From Armatimonadota bacterium (lineage in GTDB: Bacteria > Armatimonadota > HRBIN16): 64,000 bases of DNA. The stretch's first letter is position 1, and every line of letters begins with the position of its first letter. The position numbers were made by a program, and so were the translations under genes. Where the stretch lies: NCBI GenBank assembly GCA_040289885.1, contig PSLZ01000005.1, forward strand, positions 26,598 to 90,597. The letters run 5' to 3'. The notes below the pieces were generated by a model. It was not told the origin of the DNA. It saw only the letters and a list, made by a program, of their open reading frames with translations, and did not search any database. This document shows, one piece after another, positions 363 to 55,499 of the stretch.

Positions 363-1323
363 ATGGCAGTAGTACCCCCTGTTACCGCCTGGGCGGGTGA
401 CATACCGGAGCTGTTCCAACGATGGCATGTCGTTGCCGAGCCTGACCGCGATGCCGCCGAATGGTGGGCAGGCGCGCCAAGTGGTGCGCGACAGAAGAAG
501 CGTCTTCTGGATGGCACTGCGGATGCGCACGGCAGAGGGTCAACTGGGTCAGCGCGGCTACGAGATACGCATCCTTCGCAGCGACGACGGTATACATTTT
601 GTGAAGATTCATCGCATCCAAAGAGAACAGATACCCACCACGGGCTTCGAACGCTCTGCCCTGCTCGTAGACCCTCATACGGGGAAGTTCAAGCTGTACG
701 CCTGCGGTCCACTCACCGGCGACTGGTGCATCTTCAAGTTCGCCGACGTCGACAGCCCAGAACAGTTTGACCCTGCTACCGTCAAGCCCGTTATCGAGGC
801 TATCCCCTCGCATCCACAGGGTGTACCGCACCCCACCGCGTACAAGGACCCGTTTATCCTCTATGCTGGCGGCGCCTATCATTGCTACGTCATCGGCGTG
901 TTGCGCTCGGAACGCATTTTCCACTTTACCAGCGCAGACGGCGAGCAGTGGCAACCGATAGGACACCCTTCTGAATCGTTGCTACCGCTCGCAGGATGGC
1001 ATTCGTTCTATTATGTGCGTCCCGCGTGCGTGCTTCCGATCGGTGTGGGCTACCTCTTCGTTTATGAAGGCTCCAGTGTGCCGTGGGAAGACCCGGTGTA
1101 TAACATCGCGACGGGGCTCGGATTCACCTTCGACCTCCATCACGTCACTGACCTCACGCCCGACGCCCCTTTGCTGGTCAGCCCTACTCCAGGTAGGCTT
1201 CACGTCTGGCGCTATTCGCACTGGTTGCGGGTGGAAGATGAGCTGTGGGTGTACGCCGAGGTGGAGAAACCCAATGGCGCACACGAGACAAGGCTCTTCC
1301 GGTTACCACGCAGTCGCCCGTAG
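363..1323 (+). CDS. BNR/Asp-box beta-propeller glycoside-hydrolase-like protein (GH130/GH43-like); apparent 1-nt frameshift near 480 (N-terminus in frame 0 from ATG 363, body in frame of ORF 397..1323)
   Basis: Strong RBS AGGAAGGA 5 nt before ATG 363 (MAVVPPVTAWAGDIPELFQRWHVVAEPDRDAAEWWAGAP), then protein-like sequence continues only in +1 frame (VVRDRRSVFWMALRM...); Asp-box TSADGEQW; WxGAP-VVRDG...FW motif spans the junction. Confidence 0.5.
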
Positions 1324-1402
1324 CGGTCTTGCGTTGTTCCGCTTCACGAATGTATACTGTAGGCGGAGTTTGCGAGACTGCCCTAACAGGTGGTGAACAA
1401 GA

Positions 1403-2075
1403 ATGGAAGCATCGCCTTCGCTGAAAACCAAGGTACACTACCCGGATTCGAATGGTCAGCCTATGGCAGATAACACCATTCAGTACGAGTATATCGTCAC
1501 GCTCAAAGGCAATCTGGAACTGCTCTTCGCGGACGACCCCAATGTTTTCGTCGCTGGCGACCTGCTCTGGTACCCCGTAGAAAACCGCCCCGATATCCGT
1601 CAGGCGCCCGACACCCTAGTGGTCTTCGGACGCCCGAAGGGACACCGAGGCTCAATACAAGCAGTGGGAAGAAGGCAATATCCCGCCCCAGGTGGTCTTT
1701 GAGATATGGTCCCCTCATAACCGACTTGGACAGATGCTGAACAAGCTCAACTTCTATGAGCGCTACGGAGTGGAAGAGTACTATATCTACTACCCAGAGA
1801 GCGGAGAATGGGAAGGCTGGTACCGCAGCGGTGATCGTCTGGTGCCCATCGAGCAAATGGACGGCTGGACCAGTCCCCGATTGAGTATTCGCTTTGGCAA
1901 AGGTTACGAGACGGACCTGGGACTGCAACTACCGAACGGCAGACGCATGCTGAGCTTCCTGCAAATCGCCCAGCTGGCCGAGCAAGCCCAACGCGAAGCC
2001 GAACCTGAACGACAGCGCGCCGAAAAACTGGCTCAGAAACTGCGAGAACTGGGAATCAATCCTGAGGAACTTTGA
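1403..2075 (+). pseudogene. Uma2 family endonuclease (DUF820), disrupted by 1-nt insertion frameshift at ~1647 (ORFs 1403..1702 + 1692..2075)
   Basis: N-part PDSNGQPMADNT...VFVAGDLLWYPVE...VVFGRPKGHRGS and C-part VVFEIWSPHN... are contiguous Uma2 motifs; deleting one A in ggctcaAtacaagcagtgggaagaa restores GSYKQWEEGNIPPQVVFEIWSP. Confidence 0.7.
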
Positions 2076-2083
2076 GCCTGCCC

Positions 2084-2112
2084 TTGCATCCTCGCCCAAG
2101 TTAGGGTATCAT
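2084..2112 (+). promoter_or_regulatory. sigma-70 type promoter of groESL (-35 TTGCAT, 17-bp spacer, -10 TATCAT)
   Basis: TTGCAT 2084-2089, TATCAT 2107-2112, immediately upstream of CIRCE. Confidence 0.55.
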
Positions 2113-2123
2113 ATTTCGTGGAA

Positions 2124-2150
2124 TTAGCACTCGGCAACGTCGAGTGCTAA
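2124..2150 (+). promoter_or_regulatory. CIRCE operator (HrcA binding site) TTAGCACTC-N9-GAGTGCTAA
   Basis: Perfect 9-N9-9 inverted repeat matching the CIRCE consensus, 28 nt upstream of groES start. Confidence 0.9.
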
Positions 2151-2177
2151 AATTATGCGCAAGGAGGTGACTCTGAG

Positions 2178-4114
<1,937 letters not shown>

Positions 4115-17499: not shown

Positions 17500-18783
17500 T
17501 TACTCACCATCCTGCTGATACGCCCGATACAGCAATTCCACAGGATGCATGATGGCTATCGGGTGAGGAAGAGAACGCAAGCCCTGCGCGATCCAAGCGA
17601 GACAGCCGGGGTTGCCGGTCAAAAGTATTTCCGCACCCGTTGCCCGAACGCGCTCCACCTTGCGCTGTAGCAGACGCAGTGCTATGTCCGGCTGTAACAG
17701 GTTGTAGATGCCCGCACTCCCACAGCACATGTCCGATTCGTCCAGATCGACCAGCCTTACGCCCGGGATACTGCGGATGACCTCGCGAGGTTGCCGACGC
17801 ACCCCTTGACCGTGCGCCAGATGACAGGCATCGTGATAGGTTACTACCAGCTCCGGCGTCCCCTCTTGCCCGCCCAACGGTTGCTTCGGCACCTCGAAGC
17901 CTGCCTCTACCAGAAACTCCATAACGTCTCTTACTTTCGCCGCGAAGGCTCGCGCCTGCACTTCGTAGGGTGTGCCTGCGAACAGCCTGCCATAGCCTTT
18001 CATGGCGGAGCCACATCCCGCCGAGTTGACGATGACCGCATCTACCGAGACGCGCCCGAAACACTCCATAAGGCGCAACGCCCGCCATCGCCCCGCCTCC
18101 GGAAAGCCATTATGCAGATGCAACGCCCCACAACACCCTTGTTCACGCGGCACTACCACCTCGTAGCCGTTGCGCTGTAGCACGGCAACGGTCGCCACGT
18201 TTACCTCGTGAAACAACACCGACGCCACACAACCCGTGAGCACGCCCACTCTGCCCCGCCGTTCCCCCATCGGCGGATACACCCCAACAAGCCTGCGCGG
18301 ATTCGCACCACGGGGCACCTGCGGCAGATTAGCCACCACCTTCTCCACACCCAGCAGCCGCGCCAACGGCGCAGGTAGCGCCTTGTCGCCGAAGAACGGA
18401 GACAACCTCCGACCGATATGAATGGCGAACGCGAAAGCGCGAGGCTGTGTCATCACATCCAGAAGCCACTTCTTCACGGTGCGCTGAACACCCGAACGCG
18501 ACGGCGACCGCTCCACCTGCGCCCGCGCAATCTCAATCAGCAAGCCATATGCCACCCCCGACGGACACGCGGTCTCACAAGCTAGGCACCCAAGACACCG
18601 GTCTACATGTTCGACCGCACCTGCCTGCCACTGGATGCGCCCTTCGGCCACCGCCCGCATCAGGTAGATACGCCCGCGCGGCGAATCGGCTTCACTGCCA
18701 TCCTCGACGTAAGTGGGACAAGACTGCAGGCACAAACCGCAATGGATGCATTTCAGCAGGTCCTCACTGCGAAACTCGCGCAT
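17500..18783 (-). CDS. glcF: (Fe-S)-binding protein, glycolate oxidase iron-sulfur subunit GlcF-like
   Basis: Two 4Fe-4S ferredoxin motifs (CIHCGLCLQSCPTY; CLGCLACETACPSG) followed by two CCG cysteine-rich domains; ATG overlaps stop of upstream gene (ATGA). Confidence 0.85.
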   Translation of the reverse strand: MREFRSEDLLKCIHCGLCLQSCPTYVEDGSEADSPRGRIYLMRAVAEGRIQWQAGAVEHVDRCLGCLACETACPSGVAYGLLIEIARAQVERSPSRSGVQRTVKKWLLDVMTQPRAFAFAIHIGRRLSPFFGDKALPAPLARLLGVEKVVANLPQVPRGANPRRLVGVYPPMGERRGRVGVLTGCVASVLFHEVNVATVAVLQRNGYEVVVPREQGCCGALHLHNGFPEAGRWRALRLMECFGRVSVDAVIVNSAGCGSAMKGYGRLFAGTPYEVQARAFAAKVRDVMEFLVEAGFEVPKQPLGGQEGTPELVVTYHDACHLAHGQGVRRQPREVIRSIPGVRLVDLDESDMCCGSAGIYNLLQPDIALRLLQRKVERVRATGAEILLTGNPGCLAWIAQGLRSLPHPIAIMHPVELLYRAYQQDGE

Positions 18784-20018
18784 CACAAGCCCTCCACAAA
18801 CCTGCCCGGCGCCAATATCCGATGCGGGTCAAACCTCTCCTTGAGCCGCCGCATGACGCTCGCCCCGCCGCTGACGGAGTCCCATACATCTATCTCCTGC
18901 TTCACCGCCACAGGCGCACGTTCCAGCACACCGAATCCCCCTCGCGCACGAGCCTGTGCCCGCAGCTCCCGCAACGCCTGTCCATCGGGCACGTTCTCTG
19001 TCCACCACACCCGGACGATGCCCGTGCTAAAATGCGCCTGTAGACTCGCTTGGGGAAACCGTTCGTGCGCCCATACCAGTATCTCTGGCGTCTGCGCGGG
19101 CGGCACCACGAGACGGCAACCGCAGATGGGGTTGGCAAGTAGGTAGCGGTCGCGCAACCAGTTTACCTCCTCAGACGCAACCGGCGTCCACTCGGTCGGA
19201 ACGCGCTCTTGCAGCAGGTTCGTCTGCCAGCGCACGTCCTCTTCAAACCCCGCCAATCCAACATACAGATGCCACCCGGAATCCGCACTATAGACCACCT
19301 CTACCATTTCCGCCTGCAGTAGCGGGTGGCTCAGGGCATCGTACAGGTGGAAAAGGGTGCGTACCTCGGTGAAGGACGAGCGGACCACCACGGCAACCTC
19401 CGGCAGAGGAGCCACCTTAAAGGTCAGCTCCACCAAAACGCCAAGAGTGCCCCACGAACCGGCGAACAGGCGAGGCAAATCGTAACCGGCAACGTTTTTT
19501 ACCACGCCTACCCCCGCCTTGATCATCTCCCCGGACGGAAGAACGGCACGCACCGCCAGCAACCACTCGCGCGCCAAGCCGTAGCGGTGACGCCTCGGTC
19601 CTGCCCCACCCGAAGCCACGATGCCTCCAACCGTCTGCACAGCGGGCAGAGGAGCGTCAATGGGTAGCCATTGCTGATACGGCTGAAGCAGATTCTGCAG
19701 AGCCTCCAGGGTCATCCCCGCCTCGACGGTGACCACGAGGTCACCCGGCGAGTAGTCTCTGAGACGGGAGAGAGCCCGCATGTCCATCGCCCACAGATAC
19801 TGCTCCATGGGCGAGCCGATGGGGACGTGTGTTCCGCCACCCCACACCACGCCGGGCGCGCGATGGGTGCAACACACCTTCAGCACGGCGCACACCTCCT
19901 CCGCCGATGCGGGCTCGACGACCACCTGCGGGACACAGCCGTCTAGCGCGTACGCCGTGCACGCTTCGCCCATGCCGACGTTTGAGACCGCTTGCAGGTC
20001 CTGAATGATGTCTGGCAT
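18783..20018 (-). CDS. FAD-binding oxidoreductase, GlcD/GlcE family (glycolate oxidase FAD-binding subunit-like)
   Basis: FAD-binding PCMH-type domain; start placed at MPDIIQDLQ (ORF-track N-terminal 36 aa derive from an AT-rich repeat element and look spurious); -10 TATAAT 11 nt upstream of ATG suggests a near-leaderless transcript. Confidence 0.75.
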   Translation of the reverse strand: MPDIIQDLQAVSNVGMGEACTAYALDGCVPQVVVEPASAEEVCAVLKVCCTHRAPGVVWGGGTHVPIGSPMEQYLWAMDMRALSRLRDYSPGDLVVTVEAGMTLEALQNLLQPYQQWLPIDAPLPAVQTVGGIVASGGAGPRRHRYGLAREWLLAVRAVLPSGEMIKAGVGVVKNVAGYDLPRLFAGSWGTLGVLVELTFKVAPLPEVAVVVRSSFTEVRTLFHLYDALSHPLLQAEMVEVVYSADSGWHLYVGLAGFEEDVRWQTNLLQERVPTEWTPVASEEVNWLRDRYLLANPICGCRLVVPPAQTPEILVWAHERFPQASLQAHFSTGIVRVWWTENVPDGQALRELRAQARARGGFGVLERAPVAVKQEIDVWDSVSGGASVMRRLKERFDPHRILAPGRFVEGL

Positions 20019-20082
20019 AGTATCCGCATTATAAACGAAGCGCGCCCTCGTGCGCAAGTGTAGGCTTATATCATTTCTGAGA

Positions 20083-20218
20083 TGATTATTTTTGTCATTA
20101 TGCTGTTTATCGTCGTTCTGACTCACTTCTTCCCGTCATTCCGAGCTTCTCTCTTGTCATTCTGAGCGAAGCGAAGAATCTCAACCGAGATGCAGAACTA
20201 CGTTCATCATGACAAAAA
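20083..20218. repeat. MITE/REP-like element, copy A: degenerate GTCATTCYGAGC direct repeats, full unit tgtcattctgagcgaagcgaagaatctcaaccgagatgc, terminal inverted repeats atttttgtcat / atgacaaaaa
   Basis: AT-richer island in a high-GC intergenic region; 39-nt core shared almost exactly with loci at 28924, 31996 (reverse) and 63691 (reverse, partial). Confidence 0.7.
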
Positions 20219-20344
20219 CTGAATATCCAGTGCCATAATGTGGAACATCGTCGCTGGATACGGTGTCCCTATGTGATAGACAGGGCGGGCAAAACCAACA
20301 AAGCCATACCTACCCAGAAGCAAACCGATTGAGGAGGATCGAGA

Positions 20345-21850
20345 ATGCGACTGGCACGAGAAACATGGCTCTTGCTGGCTGTGGGATTAGCAGACCTTGC
20401 GAGCATCATCTATCTTGTGCGAAACGAACTGGTACACGAAGCCAACCCCGTGATGACTTGGTATTTGATCCACTTCGGCGTGTGGGCTTTCTGCGCCGCG
20501 AAGACCCTCATGCTGGTTTGTCCGGTGGTCATCCTAGAGTGGGTGCGCCTGTTCAAACCGTACCTAGGGCGATGGGCACTGCGTATCGCACTCCTGGGTT
20601 ATGTTACCCTCTACCTCGCCGTCGTGTGGCGGGCGAACGAGGCGCATTTCCAGCGACTGCTCAGTCCTTACCTGCCTCGCTTCAGCTGGTCCCAACGTGC
20701 AAAGCCATCGGCGTCCATGTGTCCAGCCGTTCCCCAGCCGATGGGTGATGCCCATAGACTAGCAGGATTCCCTCCCCTCGGCACGAAAGCAATAATCAAA
20801 ACCAGCGGGAGGGATGAACCCGTGCGAACGGCTTGGCAACTGAATCTGGTAGCGGTAGCGCTCCTGTGTCTGTTCAGCGCATGCGGCAAGAAGCAAACGG
20901 GCACGGCAGGCATCGGCACCACAACCGGCGGAGCGAAGCTGGTTGTCGCGGTGATGCCCAAACTGAAAGGCATTGATTACTTTAACGCAGTGGAGCGAGG
21001 CGCCAAAGAAGCGGCGCAGGAACTCGGAAATATTGACCTCACCTACGACGGACCCACCGAGGGCAAGGCCGACCTGCAGATACCCTTCATCGAAAGCTGG
21101 ACCCTGCAGAAGGTGAACGTGATCGCGGTTGCCTGCAACGACCCCGACGCCATCTCCCCTGCCCTCAAACGCGCTCGCGAGAAAGGCGTTCACGTCATTA
21201 CCTACGACGCCGATGCTAACGCCGAAAAGTCGGGACGTGAGTTCTTCGTGAACCAGGCAACCTTCGAAGACATCGGGCGCGCGCTGGTGGACGAAATGGC
21301 TTCGCAGGCAGGTGCCGAGGCAAAAGTAGCCATCGTCAGCTCTTCACCCACTGCGCCCAACCAGAACGCCTGGATCGCGGTGATGAAGCGCTATATGGCG
21401 GAAAAGTACCCGAAGATGCAGATAGTGACCATCCAGTACCCCGAAGAGGACCAGGGACGTGCCTTCAGCATGACGCAGGACATCCTCAAAACCTACCCGG
21501 ATGTGAAAGGCGTGTTTGGGCTCTCTTCCGTGGCATTCCCGGGCGCTGCCGACGCGGTGCGCCAGGCGGGCAAGAGCGGTAAGGTGGCGGTGGTGGGGCT
21601 GTCCACCCCCAAGAGCATGAAGGAGTTCGTCAAAGACGGCACGGTGAAGACGGTCATCCTATGGAACCCAGTGGACCTGGGTTACCTGACCGTGTATGTG
21701 GCGAAGGCGGTCGCGGAAGGCACACTGAAGCCGGGCGCCACCGAGTTTGAAGCGGGCAGGTTAGGCAAGGTCAAGGTGGAAGGAGACCAGGTCCTGCTGG
21801 GACCACCGATGCAGTTCACGCGCGAGAACATCGACCAGTATGACTTCTGA
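20345..21850 (+). CDS. sugar ABC transporter substrate-binding protein (CUT2, RhaS/LsrB/RbsB-like) with N-terminal DUF5658-like membrane domain in the same frame; lipoprotein form likely starts at GTG 20822
   Basis: Strong RBS GAGGAGG before ATG 20345; residues 1-100 hydrophobic with E-A-N-P motif (DUF5658-like); internal lipoprotein signal VRTAWQLNLVAVALLCLFSAC (lipobox LFSAC) preceded by GGGAGGG; remainder is a Peripla_BP_4-type SBP. Confidence 0.75.
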   Translation: MRLARETWLLLAVGLADLASIIYLVRNELVHEANPVMTWYLIHFGVWAFCAAKTLMLVCPVVILEWVRLFKPYLGRWALRIALLGYVTLYLAVVWRANEAHFQRLLSPYLPRFSWSQRAKPSASMCPAVPQPMGDAHRLAGFPPLGTKAIIKTSGRDEPVRTAWQLNLVAVALLCLFSACGKKQTGTAGIGTTTGGAKLVVAVMPKLKGIDYFNAVERGAKEAAQELGNIDLTYDGPTEGKADLQIPFIESWTLQKVNVIAVACNDPDAISPALKRAREKGVHVITYDADANAEKSGREFFVNQATFEDIGRALVDEMASQAGAEAKVAIVSSSPTAPNQNAWIAVMKRYMAEKYPKMQIVTIQYPEEDQGRAFSMTQDILKTYPDVKGVFGLSSVAFPGAADAVRQAGKSGKVAVVGLSTPKSMKEFVKDGTVKTVILWNPVDLGYLTVYVAKAVAEGTLKPGATEFEAGRLGKVKVEGDQVLLGPPMQFTRENIDQYDF

Positions 21851-22811
21851 ACGTATTCCCCCCACCCGTTTCGCACCCTGGCGCCACTACGGGCGTGAAA
21901 TGAGTGTGGGGGTGTTTCTGTTGCTGTTGCTGGCATATTTTGGCACGACGCCCGGTTTCCTGCAGGCGAGCAACCTGCGTGACATGCTCATCAACGCGTC
22001 GCCGCTAGTCATCGCCGCCTGCGGGATGACGATGCTCATTATCGCGGGCATGATCGACATCTCGGCGGGCTCTGCGCTGGCAGTGTGTGCGGTGACGGCG
22101 GGGGTGACTGCCAAATCGGGCGCGCCGTTCGTCTGGATGATACTCCTTCCTATCCTAGCGGGCGCGACCATCGGCGCGGTGAACGGCTGGCTGGTGGCTT
22201 ATGGACGCATCCCGGCAATTATCGTCACGCTGGGCATGATGAGCGTCCTGCGCGGCGGGATCATCTGGTACACGCGCGGCGAGTGGATCGGCAACCTTCC
22301 GCCCTCCTTCTCGGCGGTGGGACGTGGTCACCTGCTCGGCATTCCTGCTCCCGTGCTGATCGCCATCGGCGTGGTGACGGTTACCGCCCTCCTGCTAGCT
22401 CGCACTCCACTCGGTGGCCACATCTACGCCATCGGAGGCAATCCGCTCGCCGCCACACGCATGGGCATCCCCGTCCGCCGGACGCTATGGCTGGTGTTCG
22501 TCATGCATGGCGCCCTGTTGGGGCTGTCCGCGCTGGTGTATGCTTCAAGGTTCAGCGTCATCCAGAGCAACGCCGGCGCAGGGTTTGAACTGCTCGTCAT
22601 CAGCGCGGTGGTGGTAGGCGGGGTGAACATCTTCGGAGGACAGGGCACGGTGTGGGGCAGTGCCATCGGCGGATTACTCTTGCAGGTCATCAGCACTGGG
22701 CTGATCTTCCGCCGCGTCTCCGAGTACTGGGCGCCAAGCGTACAGGGTGCTCTCGTTCTGCTGGCGGTAATGGCAGACGCCCTGCGCACACCACGGAGGG
22801 TGAAACGGTGA
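21840..22811 (+). CDS. sugar ABC transporter permease (BPD_transp_2, RbsC/RhaP-like)
   Basis: 323 aa, ~10 TM; GMIDISAGSALAVCAV motif; overlaps SBP stop. Confidence 0.85.
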   Translation: MTSERIPPTRFAPWRHYGREMSVGVFLLLLLAYFGTTPGFLQASNLRDMLINASPLVIAACGMTMLIIAGMIDISAGSALAVCAVTAGVTAKSGAPFVWMILLPILAGATIGAVNGWLVAYGRIPAIIVTLGMMSVLRGGIIWYTRGEWIGNLPPSFSAVGRGHLLGIPAPVLIAIGVVTVTALLLARTPLGGHIYAIGGNPLAATRMGIPVRRTLWLVFVMHGALLGLSALVYASRFSVIQSNAGAGFELLVISAVVVGGVNIFGGQGTVWGSAIGGLLLQVISTGLIFRRVSEYWAPSVQGALVLLAVMADALRTPRRVKR

Positions 22812-23746
22812 GAATCCGACTGCCACGCCGCGAGGTGATCTTGATCCTTCTGCTGTTGGTGGAGATGGCGGTGCTTCAGTCCCTCTCGCCCCTCTTCCTC
22901 ACTCCCGACAACCTGCTGGAGGTGGTTCGCCAGTCCGCCGAGATCGGGCTGATCGCCCTAGCGATGACACTGGTCATCATCACCGCTGGGATAGACCTGT
23001 CGGTCGGTTCCATCGTCGGGCTGAGCATCATGGCGATGGGCATGTTGTGGGAGGATGCACACCTCTCCCTATGGGTTGCCGTGCCGCTCGCTCTGCTAAC
23101 CGGTGCACTCTGCGGTGCACTCAACGGCACATTGATTACATCGGTGGGCATTCCCCCTCTCATCGTGACGCTGGCGACCATGGCGGGCTTTCGTGGCGTC
23201 GCCTTGGGCATGAGTCAAGCGCGTTCCATCCGCAACTTCCCTGAAGGGTTCCTGTGGCTCGGTCAGGGCTACATCGCGGATGTTCCCGTGCAGGTGTGGA
23301 TATTGGCGATCGCCGCGGTGGGGTTCCACCTTGCCCTAACGCGCACCGCGTGGGGGCGGTCGGTGTTCGGCATCGGCGCGAACGAGCCTGCAGCGCGGCT
23401 CTCCGGCGTGCCGGTGCACCGGGTCAAACTGCAGGTGTACGCGCTATCGGGCTTCATGAGTGCACTGTCCGCGGTCATCTACGCCGCACACGTATCGGTC
23501 GCCAAGCCTGATGCCGGGCTGGGCTTCGAGCTCACAGCGATTACGGCGGTGGTGTTGGGCGGGACCGCCGTCTCCGGCGGCGAGGGGGGCGTACTGGGAA
23601 CCTTAATCGCGCTGTTGATGGTGGGTTTCCTACGCAGTGGGTTAACCCTGGCGCGCGTGCCCTCGGAAGCTCAGGATATGATGGTAGGGCTACTACTGCT
23701 CATCGTGGTTGCCATAGACCGTTGGAGCCGTGCCGGCAGAGAGTAA
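22808..23746 (+). CDS. sugar ABC transporter permease (BPD_transp_2, RbsC/RhaQ-like)
   Basis: GTG 22808 overlaps upstream stop (GTGA); GIDLSVGSIVGLSIMAMG motif; ORF-track N-terminal extension is spurious. Confidence 0.8.
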   Translation: MRIRLPRREVILILLLLVEMAVLQSLSPLFLTPDNLLEVVRQSAEIGLIALAMTLVIITAGIDLSVGSIVGLSIMAMGMLWEDAHLSLWVAVPLALLTGALCGALNGTLITSVGIPPLIVTLATMAGFRGVALGMSQARSIRNFPEGFLWLGQGYIADVPVQVWILAIAAVGFHLALTRTAWGRSVFGIGANEPAARLSGVPVHRVKLQVYALSGFMSALSAVIYAAHVSVAKPDAGLGFELTAITAVVLGGTAVSGGEGGVLGTLIALLMVGFLRSGLTLARVPSEAQDMMVGLLLLIVVAIDRWSRAGRE

Positions 23747-26554: not shown

Positions 26555-27186
26555 TGAATCTGGATAGCTATCGCCAGCAGTTATGTGAGCTGGGGCACTA
26601 TCTAGGCGCGCGTGGGCTAGCTTGGGGCACCTCAGGCAATATCAGCCTGCGCCTCGACGAGGAGCGGTTCCTCATCTCGGCATCGGGCGCGTGGCTTGGT
26701 AATCTCACGCCAGAGCAGACGACGCTCTGCTTCCTGCAGTCCGAGCAGGTCATCGGCACGAAGCCGTCGGTGGAAACCCCTATGCATCGCGCCATCTATC
26801 GCAACCGCCCCGACGCGCAGGTGGTGGTGCACGTCTCGCCTCCTTACACCACGCTTATCGCCTGCTCCAGCCTGCACATCCCGACCGACCTGAACATCGA
26901 AAATATCTTCTATCTGGGGCGAGTGGCTCGCGTGCCCTACATGCACCCCGGTACCCAGCCGTTGGCAGAGGCTGTAGGCGCCGCGGTGCGCGAGCACGAA
27001 ACGCTCATCCTCTCCAACCACGGCGCGATCACCTTTCACCAATCCATCCCCGACGTGCTGATGCGGGTGGAGTCGCTGGAGATGACCTGTCGGATAGTGA
27101 CGATGGCGCGCATGGCAAACATCCCGCTCAACCACCTGCCCGCCGAGGTCGCCGAAGCGCTTCGGAGCGGCTATCGCAGGTCATAG
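26554..27186 (+). CDS. class II aldolase/adducin family protein
   Basis: 210 aa starting MNLDSYRQQLCELG (ATG overlaps upstream TGA); GNISLR...HVSPPY...SNHGAITF motifs of class II aldolases; 3' end overlaps convergent mqnA by 16 nt. Confidence 0.7.
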   Translation: MNLDSYRQQLCELGHYLGARGLAWGTSGNISLRLDEERFLISASGAWLGNLTPEQTTLCFLQSEQVIGTKPSVETPMHRAIYRNRPDAQVVVHVSPPYTTLIACSSLHIPTDLNIENIFYLGRVARVPYMHPGTQPLAEAVGAAVREHETLILSNHGAITFHQSIPDVLMRVESLEMTCRIVTMARMANIPLNHLPAEVAEALRSGYRRS

Positions 27187-33651: not shown

Positions 33652-34747
33652 CCTTCTGCGTCTCCTTATCAAACAGGTGCGTCTTGTCCATGTCCAGCAC
33701 GATCTCCAGCTCCTCTCCTTCCTTCGCCTTCGTATCGGCGTCGATAGTGGCGACGAGCTGGTGCGTGCCAAGGGTCAAATACACCGTGACCACCGCCCCC
33801 ATCGGCTCGATGACGTCGACCATCGCCTTGAGTGTGTTCCCGTCGTGCGCGGTGGTCATGGGCGCCAGCGCCTTGTCGAAAATATCCTCCGGGCGCACGC
33901 CGAACACCACCTGCTTGTCCACCCAAGGCTGAACCTTATCCGCGGCGAACTTGGGCAGAAGCAGTTTGAAATCGCCGCCGTCCACATAGTATTCCTCGCC
34001 GCTGCGCTTCAGCGTCACATCGAGGAAGTTCATCGGTGGCGTACCGATGAAGCCGGCGACGAACATGTTCACCGGGTAATGATAGATGTTTAGCGGGGTA
34101 TCCACCTGCTGTAGAACGCCGTCTTTGATGACCGCGATGCGGTCGCCCATCGTCATCGCTTCCACCTGGTCATGCGTGACGTAAATGGTGGTGACCGCCA
34201 GTCGCCTCTGCAGTTTGATCAGCTCGGCACGCGTCTGCACGCGTAGTTTGGCGTCCAGGTTGGAGAGCGGCTCGTCCATCAGGAACACCTGCGGCTCGCG
34301 AACGATCGCACGCCCCAGCGCGACCCGCTGTCGCTGACCGCCCGATAACTGCTTGGGCTTGCGGTCCAAAAGCCCTTCCAACCCCAGCAGTTTCGCTGCC
34401 TCATGCACCCTGCGCTGAATCTCCGCCTTGGGGAACTTACGCATGCGCAGAGCGAACGCCATGTTGTCGTACACCGTCATGTGAGGATACAGCGCGTAGT
34501 TCTGGAACACCATAGCGATATCGCGGTCCTTAGGCTGAACGTCGTTCACCAGCCGGTCGCCGATGTATATTTCGCCGGAGGTGACCTCTTCCAGCCCAGC
34601 GATCATGCGCAGTGCGGTGGTCTTCCCACAGCCAGAAGGTCCTACCAGCACGAGAAACTCTTTATCTTTGATCTCCAGATTGAGGTCGTTGACGGCAACG
34701 ACGTTTTTGAATACTTTGGTCAGATGCTTTAGCGTGACCGATGCCAC
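33641..34747 (-). CDS. ABC transporter ATP-binding protein, MalK/UgpC/MsmX (CUT1) family
   Basis: Walker [10 protein letters not shown], signature LSGGQRQR, Walker [13 protein letters not shown]-terminal TOBE domain; GTG start after GGAGGG. Confidence 0.9.
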
Positions 34748-54705: not shown

Positions 54706-55499
54706 CGGTCACGCTCCTGTACCGTCGCGGTTTGCTCATCCTGCACAATGCCACCAGCCCGCAGGAAACGGTGTACGACAGGGTTCGGGTTCGCACGCAG
54801 TTCCTCCGGCGAGCCACAGGCGATAATGCGCCCTTCGTGAAGCATGGCGACCCTGTCCGCAATATGGAACACACTGGTCAGGTCATGTGAAACCACCAGA
54901 GCCGTGACACTCAAACGGCGCGTGGTGTCCACAATCAGGTTATCGATGGTTTCCGCCATAATCGGGTCCAAACCTGCTGTCGGCTCGTCGTACAGCACGA
55001 TTTTGGGGTTCATCGCTAGCGCACGCGCCAGCCCCACCCGCTTCTGCATCCCCCCAGAGAGCTGGGCGGGATACAGTTGCTCGGTTCCTGCCATGCCCAC
55101 CATCTCGAGCCTCTGCTTCACGATCTCCGCCACTTCCTTCTCGCGGCGGGTGATGTGGCGCCGTACCCCAAACGCCACGTTGTCGTACACCGTCAGCGAG
55201 TCAAACAGCGCCGCATACTGAAACACCAGCCCCACCTGTTTGCGGATGGGCGTCAGCCCCACCTCCGACAGGCGTGAGATCTCGGTGTCCCCAATCCATA
55301 TCTGACCGCGCTGAGGCTTGATCAATCCCCCCACCAGCTTCAACAACGTCGTCTTGCCACAACCCGATGGACCCATGATAGCAAAAATCTCACCCGTGCG
55401 CACCTCTAAGGAGACGCCCTGCAGTACCCATCGCGAGTCCACCTCGTACCACACGTCCACCACGCGCACTGCGCTCTGTGCCTGCGATTGCTCCCTCAT
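54702..55499 (-). CDS. ABC transporter ATP-binding protein, MlaF-like
   Basis: Walker [10 protein letters not shown], signature LSGGMQKRV, Walker B LYDEPTAGLD; start ATG 55499 overlapping permease stop. Confidence 0.85.
   Translation of the reverse strand: MREQSQAQSAVRVVDVWYEVDSRWVLQGVSLEVRTGEIFAIMGPSGCGKTTLLKLVGGLIKPQRGQIWIGDTEISRLSEVGLTPIRKQVGLVFQYAALFDSLTVYDNVAFGVRRHITRREKEVAEIVKQRLEMVGMAGTEQLYPAQLSGGMQKRVGLARALAMNPKIVLYDEPTAGLDPIMAETIDNLIVDTTRRLSVTALVVSHDLTSVFHIADRVAMLHEGRIIACGSPEELRANPNPVVHRFLRAGGIVQDEQTATVQERDR

Follow-up and report, generated by a model that had tools for sequence, protein, structure and literature searches.

In the 64,000-nucleotide (nt) stretch of the Armatimonadota contig PSLZ01000005.1 analyzed here (contig positions 26,598 to 90,597; hereafter the window), a single open reading frame (ORF) at 20345..21850 (+) encodes a protein of 501 amino acids (aa) that combines a DUF5658 membrane domain with a Peripla_BP_4 sugar-binding domain. 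We conclude, with a probability of about 0.88, that this ORF represents two normally separate genes that were joined by a 1-nt insertion (in the following the +G allele), and that it is a real allele in one strain lineage. The two genes share one ORF because the resulting +1 shift skips the TAG stop codon of the upstream gene, the 59-nt intergenic spacer is stop-free in the new frame, and this new frame is also that of the binding-protein gene.

The insertion site is located five codons ahead of the ancestral TAG, where the window reads cag ccg atg ggt gat gcc cat aga cta gca (QPMGDAHRLA). Removal of one base from 'ggtg' (20744-20747) yields ccg atg gtg atg ccc ata gac TAG, that is, PMVMPID followed by a stop and hence the C-terminus of the family: the motif (K/R)PMxMP(I/V/L)(D/E) is kept in 17/17 aligned DUF5658 orthologues (proteins of 134-148 aa), in which it is followed by a stop or a short extension. 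An intact allele of exactly this kind is present in locus L030 (Logan SRR24079469; protein P0142, 138 aa), which shares 95-97 % nt identity with the window and reads ccg atg gtg atg ccc gtg gac TAG (QPMVMPVD and stop). Behind this TAG, L030 features a spacer of identical length (59 nt) and then a separate gene for the binding protein (342 aa) that begins with the same GTG, and the G missing at 20743 is the sole indel in the alignment of L030 with the window across the DUF5658 and binding-protein region. The frameshift between the two halves is thus shown in effect by a sister allele. Within the fused frame, no stop codon occurs between ATG 20345 and GTG 20822. This openness is no statistical oddity in need of a special explanation, since just 19-20 codons of GC-rich spacer must be stop-free after the +1 shift, for which we estimate, roughly and without formal computation, a chance of ~0.4.

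The composition of the chimera follows directly from this comparison. Residues 1-133 correspond to the native membrane protein (with 96-133 being the natural C-terminal tail of the DUF5658 family), residues 134-139 to six frameshifted codons, residues 140-159 to the translated 5'-untranslated region (5'-UTR) of the binding-protein gene together with the Shine-Dalgarno (SD) sequence that it contains, and residues 160-501 to the binding-protein precursor. In other words, the membrane protein has GDAHRL in place of its final VMPID (five residues), behind which the translated UTR and the whole precursor add a total of 362 foreign residues in the +G allele. An earlier, sequence-only reading of the window had described a strong ribosome-binding site in front of a stop-free ORF (GAGGAGG-N7-ATG 20345), a DUF5658-like domain with an E-A-N-P motif, an internal lipoprotein start at GTG 20822 behind GGGAGGG, and a Peripla_BP_4 domain. 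All of these features were recovered: the ribosome-binding site and the ORF are found in the sequence at these positions, PF18902 scores above its gathering threshold with an invariant EANP, the lipoprotein signal matches PS51257 with a start that is fixed by the relatives, and the sugar-binding domain reaches 227 bits in Pfam. Its low-complexity linker, by contrast, dissolves into the natural tail, the six frameshifted codons, and the translated 5'-UTR. The same reading had left three explanations side by side, namely two products from one frame, a genuine fusion, or an indel that hides a stop. The last of these is what occurred, as an extra G indeed displaces the TAG; it is, however, not a sequencing error but shared by independent assemblies and haplotypes (see below).

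When both halves are aligned separately against their orthologues, as that reading had proposed, they turn out to be separate genes in relatives. A search with the N-terminal 135 aa returned DUF5658 orthologues that are stand-alone in 18/18 cases (103-148 aa, with precomputed PF18902 assignments), and the DUF5658 gene possesses its own stop in 12/12 relatives' loci fetched, all of which stem from Armatimonadota-type metagenome-assembled genomes (MAGs) labeled 'Armatimonadota bacterium', 'Bacterium HR16', or 'Chthonomonadia bacterium'. When 1.8 billion cluster representatives were searched with a profile, 542 members of the wider family were found, and the best 150 of these 542 measure 89-282 aa and are consequently too short for a binding domain. 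A search with the whole ORF found both domains together only in cluster P0001 (501 aa, differing from the window by 1 aa), whose own 90 % cluster also contained L030 and the variant alleles described below. A genuine fusion as a family feature is accordingly not supported, as the combination of DUF5658 and binding protein does not recur in any of the 18 orthologues or in the best 150 of the 542 representatives. The small stand-alone format that characterizes DUF5658 proteins is lost in the 501-aa allele and retained in its 138-aa sister.

In eight of the relatives' loci (L008-L010, L012-L015, L022), the DUF5658 gene is followed by a spacer of 54-73 nt, which shares its conserved element with the window spacer, and then by the binding-protein gene, which carries TTG at the position of the window's GTG. 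A different arrangement is found in L002, where a 3.5-kb block of pseudopilin-like (N_methyl) and sigma-70 region-4 genes (439-4000) lies between the two genes, and in L001, which harbors a 474-nt remnant of this block (3527-4000) including the last ~70 nt of the sigma-factor gene. In SKYG40-type MAGs, the binding-protein operon adjoins a HIT-family gene and the DUF5658 gene resides on a different contig, while binding-protein relatives at 65 % identity (L019-L021) show no DUF gene upstream. Given the L002 insertion, the L001 remnant, and the separate contigs in SKYG40-type MAGs, the DUF5658 and binding-protein genes are neighbors and not obligate partners.

L001 and L002 had initially suggested a different origin of the fusion, namely that ~420 bp between the genes, together with the stop, were lost from the window. 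Such a deletion would account for the start-to-start distances (894 nt in L001 versus 477 nt in the window), and short similar motifs (AGGnTTCC) flank the extra DNA in L001. It is ruled out, however, by the short 54-73-nt spacer in nine other loci (L030 in addition to the eight listed above) and by the derived state of L001 and L002, which carry the remnant and the 3.5-kb insertion, respectively; moreover, the ancestral TAG is still present in the window. We therefore regard a deletion-driven fusion as extremely improbable.

Another possibility is that the extra G is a sequencing or assembly error and does not exist in the organism, whose genes would then be separate as in the relatives. The insertion does fall into a short homopolymer (GG to GGG), the sequence-only reading mentioned other frameshifts in the window, and the related contig L031 contains a further homopolymer indel. 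On the other hand, short reads are not prone to errors in a run of just three G, and four fetched assemblies (L003-L006) from two repositories carry this insertion as well, i. e., the three ENA assemblies ERZ1673964-6 and the JGI metagenome 3300003453, with SPAdes-type contig names and 10-11x coverage. The window differs from these by single-nucleotide polymorphisms (SNPs) at 20181 and 20733, the latter of which results in P130 in place of R130. Further 501-aa variants with the insertion are P0140 (L55V) and P0141 (P121A), and the insertion thus occurs on SNP-distinct haplotypes (the window versus P0001, P0140, and P0141), at least four in number. As independent assemblies and several haplotypes carry it, +G is a genuine persisting mutation that spread and diversified within the sampled population, and an error appears very unlikely. 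An exact look-up of the window's own 501-aa protein gave no record, as its residue 130 differs from that of P0001.

One additional allele deserves mention. L031 (SRR6519259, short contig, 471-735) contains both the extra G and an extra A, so that read-through ends at a TGA inside GGGAGGGATGA, equivalent to window positions 20815-20817 and 4 nt before the GTG, giving a 157-aa product (P0143) and a separate binding-protein gene. The extra A may be a second-site suppressor or an error, given that it is known from one low-coverage contig. In the first permease gene farther downstream, four substitutions (three T-to-G, one A-to-C) are clustered within 9 nt (22495-22503) between the window and the otherwise nearly identical L003, which may reflect a micro-recombination tract or a local assembly error.

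The event can be compared with read-through chimeras of adjacent same-strand genes that arise by frameshift or stop loss and are marked as 'frameshifted' by annotation pipelines. With these, it shares the homopolymer single-base indel that takes a stop out of frame and the existence of an intact sister allele. It differs in that only five codons separate the shift from the stop, leaving the window's upstream protein almost complete, and in that the new frame matches the downstream gene, which results in a clean two-domain ORF instead of a truncated pseudogene. A homopolymer indel removing a stop is nonetheless a commonplace event and both component families were already known; as such, the fusion event is an ordinary mutation of low novelty.

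For the downstream part, comparison with relatives places the start of the binding-protein gene at GTG 20822. Orthologues at 86-91 % identity are all exactly 342 aa long, which is the length obtained from this codon. No alternative in-frame start follows the nearest upstream stop in L022, L001, L002, L024, L025, L028, and L031, and an in-frame stop is positioned just 3-12 nt upstream of the start in L024, L025, and L028. The N-terminal MRTAWQLNLVAVALLCLFSA followed by C fits the PROSITE pattern PS51257 with Cys at residue 21 and R2, as is likewise the case in 13 relatives (a lipoprotein being predicted from a PS51257 lipobox whose Cys falls between residues 15 and 35, combined with a Lys or Arg in the n-region). 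Across the clade, the ratio of non-synonymous to synonymous substitution rates (dN/dS, omega) of the binding protein is ~0.01-0.03, indicative of very strong purifying selection. GTG as start codon is confined to the window species (intact and +G alleles; window position 20822, L030 657, L031 654), while TTG is found in all other relatives.

The 5'-UTR of this gene is itself ~90 % conserved at the DNA level (comparison of the window with L001, L002, L008-L010, L013, L014, L022, and L030), while the coding tail just upstream is not alignable. Its anti-SD arm UCCCUCCC is predicted to pair with the SD sequence in a hairpin with a minimum free energy of -22.9 kcal/mol and a single-sequence z-score of only -0.88. 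In 10 relatives, 94 % of cells are paired and five one-sided C-to-U changes keep G.U pairs, with no double compensations; shuffling controls are uninformative because the SD arm is invariant. An SD-sequestering hairpin is hence plausible but unproven. In the more distant L024 and L028, GCAGGAYTC...CACGAA...AGGAGGGAT is kept and the anti-SD arm is not. An Rfam scan of 20100-21000 (E up to 10) retrieved only two chance matches (a small nucleolar RNA and a long non-coding RNA), and a promoter/terminator scan of 20100-20900 found nothing. The conserved 5'-UTR may constitute a translational control element, for example, a thermometer or a repressor site.

Two products from one frame, the remaining option of the sequence-only reading, are a probable consequence of the +G allele as judged from the sequence. 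The binding protein would still be made mainly as a normal prolipoprotein from GTG 20822, given that its own SD sequence GGGAGGG, its start position, and its lipobox are untouched and that strong purifying selection persists. Ribosomes initiating at ATG 20345 would furnish the 501-aa chimera in addition. This situation is reminiscent of E. coli infB, clpB, and cheA, in which internal initiation yields a second product in the same frame, and the window likewise contains an in-frame start with its own SD sequence (GTG 20822 behind GGGAGGG) inside a longer ORF. In contrast to those genes, in which the arrangement is conserved and both products are functional, the dual-product arrangement of the window is absent from the orthologues, the relatives' loci, and L030; it is a recent accident of one lineage, and its internal start is no more than the initiation codon that the downstream gene had from the outset.

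The fate of the chimera presumably depends on membrane topology. Over 150 family representatives, the mean number of Lys plus Arg residues is 2.2 for the N-terminus, 3.6 for loop 2, and 0.7 for the EANP loop; the sum of N-terminus and loop 2 (5.8) exceeds that of loop 1 and the tail (4.25), and an N-in, C-out orientation is favored in 106/150. With the N-terminus inside and the C-terminal tail outside, the appended signal peptide would be inserted with its n-region outside and thus in the wrong orientation for Lgt and LspA. Owing to this predicted misorientation, the chimera is probably, with moderate confidence, a tolerated and largely useless by-product and not a new functional protein.

Several points weigh against this interpretation and against a purely accidental origin. 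The topology is read only from the positive-inside rule, with a tail of mixed charge, and therefore commands moderate confidence. Under the opposite topology, a cytoplasmic tail would present a correctly oriented signal peptide, such that cleavage by LspA would release a near-normal membrane protein and a lipoprotein. In addition, most of the assemblies found carry +G, which has persisted through several haplotypes, and a selective benefit would also fit this pattern; the ENA assemblies may share one study or site, so that the samples are only partially independent.

These points lead to the alternative of an adaptive fusion, in which the chimera would be functional, for instance, as a binding protein tethered by the three-helix domain or as a precursor that is cut by LspA at the lipobox, and in which the strong upstream ribosome-binding site would bypass the SD-sequestering hairpin. 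In line with such a role, +G is the commonest allele found (at least four haplotypes), the DUF part shows no nonsynonymous excess (omega 0.22-0.33 versus L030, from only 20 substitutions), and the hairpin that possibly represses the internal start is conserved. Yet, the architecture is limited to one sub-species lineage with an intact allele in the same species, the membrane protein has lost its conserved C-terminal motif, and the 'linker' is untouched UTR that displays no remodelling and only 2 C-to-T differences to L030. Moreover, the predicted N-in, C-out topology misorients the signal peptide, and a gene-separating variant (L031) exists. We hence consider an adaptive fusion quite unlikely. 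It is likewise unlikely that the +G allele is non-neutral in a way that would involve upstream translation through the hairpin, thereby coupling or de-repressing the binding protein, a product that is anchored or cut at the lipobox, and selection on the newborn fusion. If this should be true, the allele series intact, +G, and +G+A would record selection on a newborn gene fusion.

The DUF5658 part matches PF18902 with 27.4 bits when the whole ORF is scored and with 31.1 bits when its N-terminal part is taken by itself (gathering score 25.2), and E32-A33-N34-P35 is invariant across 19 aligned family sequences. An AlphaFold2 (AF2) model (predicted local distance difference test score, pLDDT, 72.7) consists of helices 3-26, 35-70, and 72-97, with the loop 27-34 between the first two. 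The protein thus resembles other small DUF5658 membrane proteins in its profile score above the gathering cut-off, the invariant EANP loop, and three predicted helices, but differs from them in that the conserved ...PMxMPI(D/E) end is replaced in the +G allele and the foreign residues follow. The DUF core evolves with a dN/dS of ~0.1-0.2 across the clade, and all lineages show rapid evolution of the gene, with 61-83 % aa identity as opposed to 89-96 % for the binding protein. Accelerated decay of the DUF gene in the window lineage was not seen, as omega is <1 and the copy not specially degenerate. A Foldseek comparison of the AF2 model with the PDB gave no match with E <1, and a literature search for 'DUF5658' found no mention in the collection searched.

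The binding protein matches PF13407 near full length (profile positions 1-256 of 258). Its best NCBIfam model is TIGR02637 (RhaS), which aligns end-to-end with 297 bits and thus below the equivalog cut-off of 342.25, followed by LsrB with 228 bits; because of the sub-threshold score, the substrate is left unassigned. The nearest solved structures are the rhamnose-binding proteins 4kvf and 5bq3, followed by the autoinducer-2-binding protein LsrB. The gene is the first of an ATP-binding cassette (ABC) importer operon (20822-23746), with two BPD_transp_2 permease genes behind it. An ABC ATPase gene usually accompanies CUT2-type sugar importers. No such gene was found beside the binding protein-permease-permease operon, and the only genes with Walker A and LSGGQ motifs in the window encode single-domain ATPases >10 kb away, near 34348-34642 (-) and 55061-55373 (-). 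The system therefore resembles RhaS/LsrB-type CUT2 binding proteins (4kvf, 5bq3, 1tjy) in the full-length Peripla_BP_4 domain, the end-to-end TIGR02637 match, and the two BPD_transp_2 genes behind it, and differs from them in a protein that is lipid-anchored by a predicted lipobox instead of free in the periplasm and in an operon without an ATPase gene.

On its other side, the DUF5658 gene (20345 +) is consistently divergent from a gene pair at 17500-20126 (-) with FAD_binding_4 and Fer4/CCG domains (GlcE/GlcF-like). This divergent pair is seen in L001, L007-L016, L018, and L022, and its synteny with the DUF5658 gene is more constant than that of the binding-protein gene. The FAD_binding_4 gene (18783-20126, -) is called with a length of 447 aa in the window, L003, L004, and L006 and of 411 aa in L001, L005, and L022; an over-extended start call may account for the 36 additional N-terminal residues (MSQNDDKQHNDKNNHLRND...). 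The coordinates of all features at the fused locus are collected in Table 1.

Table 1. Features of the fused DUF5658/sugar-binding protein locus (window coordinates).
Feature	Position	Strand	Basis
Chimeric ORF: DUF5658 gene continuing into binding-protein gene	20345..21850	+	ORF list; PF18902 and PF13407
SD sequence GAGGAGG of the DUF5658-family gene	20331..20337	+	7 nt, then ATG 20345; read from sequence
DUF5658-family gene, ancestral extent (138 aa if extra G absent)	20345..20762	+	One-base removal; allele L030; orthologues
DUF5658 (PF18902) domain, aa 13-94, three predicted long helices, invariant EANP loop	20381..20626	+	Pfam; AF2 model
G run with 1-nt insertion (GG in intact allele, GGG in window; +1 shift from codon 134)	20743..20745	+	Alignment with L030
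Ancestral TAG stop of the DUF5658 gene, now out of frame (read c-TA/G-ca)	20760..20762	+	Sequence; L030 alignment
59-nt intergenic spacer (binding-protein 5'-UTR, translated as aa 140-159)	20763..20821	+	Spacer alignments; L030
Predicted hairpin: UCCCUCCC (20769-20776) pairing with SD GGGAGGGA (20807-20814)	20769..20814	+	Folding; relatives
A run in which L031 has a second 1-nt insertion	20798..20801	+	P0143 (157 aa); alignments
SD sequence GGGAGGG of the binding-protein gene	20807..20813	+	8 nt before GTG 20822; invariant in relatives
Sugar-binding lipoprotein gene proper (342 aa, RhaS/LsrB-like)	20822..21850	+	Orthologue lengths; TIGR02637; structures
Predicted lipoprotein signal peptide, lipobox LFSA followed by C (Cys codon 20882-20884)	20822..20884	+	PS51257 pattern
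Peripla_BP_4 domain (PF13407), aa 201-459 of the chimera	20945..21721	+	Pfam, 227 bits (cut-off 35.1)

For annotation purposes, the 501-aa product should not be carried forward as a novel combination of DUF5658 and Peripla_BP_4. There is likewise no basis for tying the function of DUF5658 to sugar transport through guilt by fusion, since the two genes are merely neighbors and in some relatives not even adjacent. The locus instead provides a small natural example of how a single-base insertion builds a two-domain ORF without depriving the downstream gene of its own translation start, with intact and re-separated alleles on hand for comparison with the +G allele.

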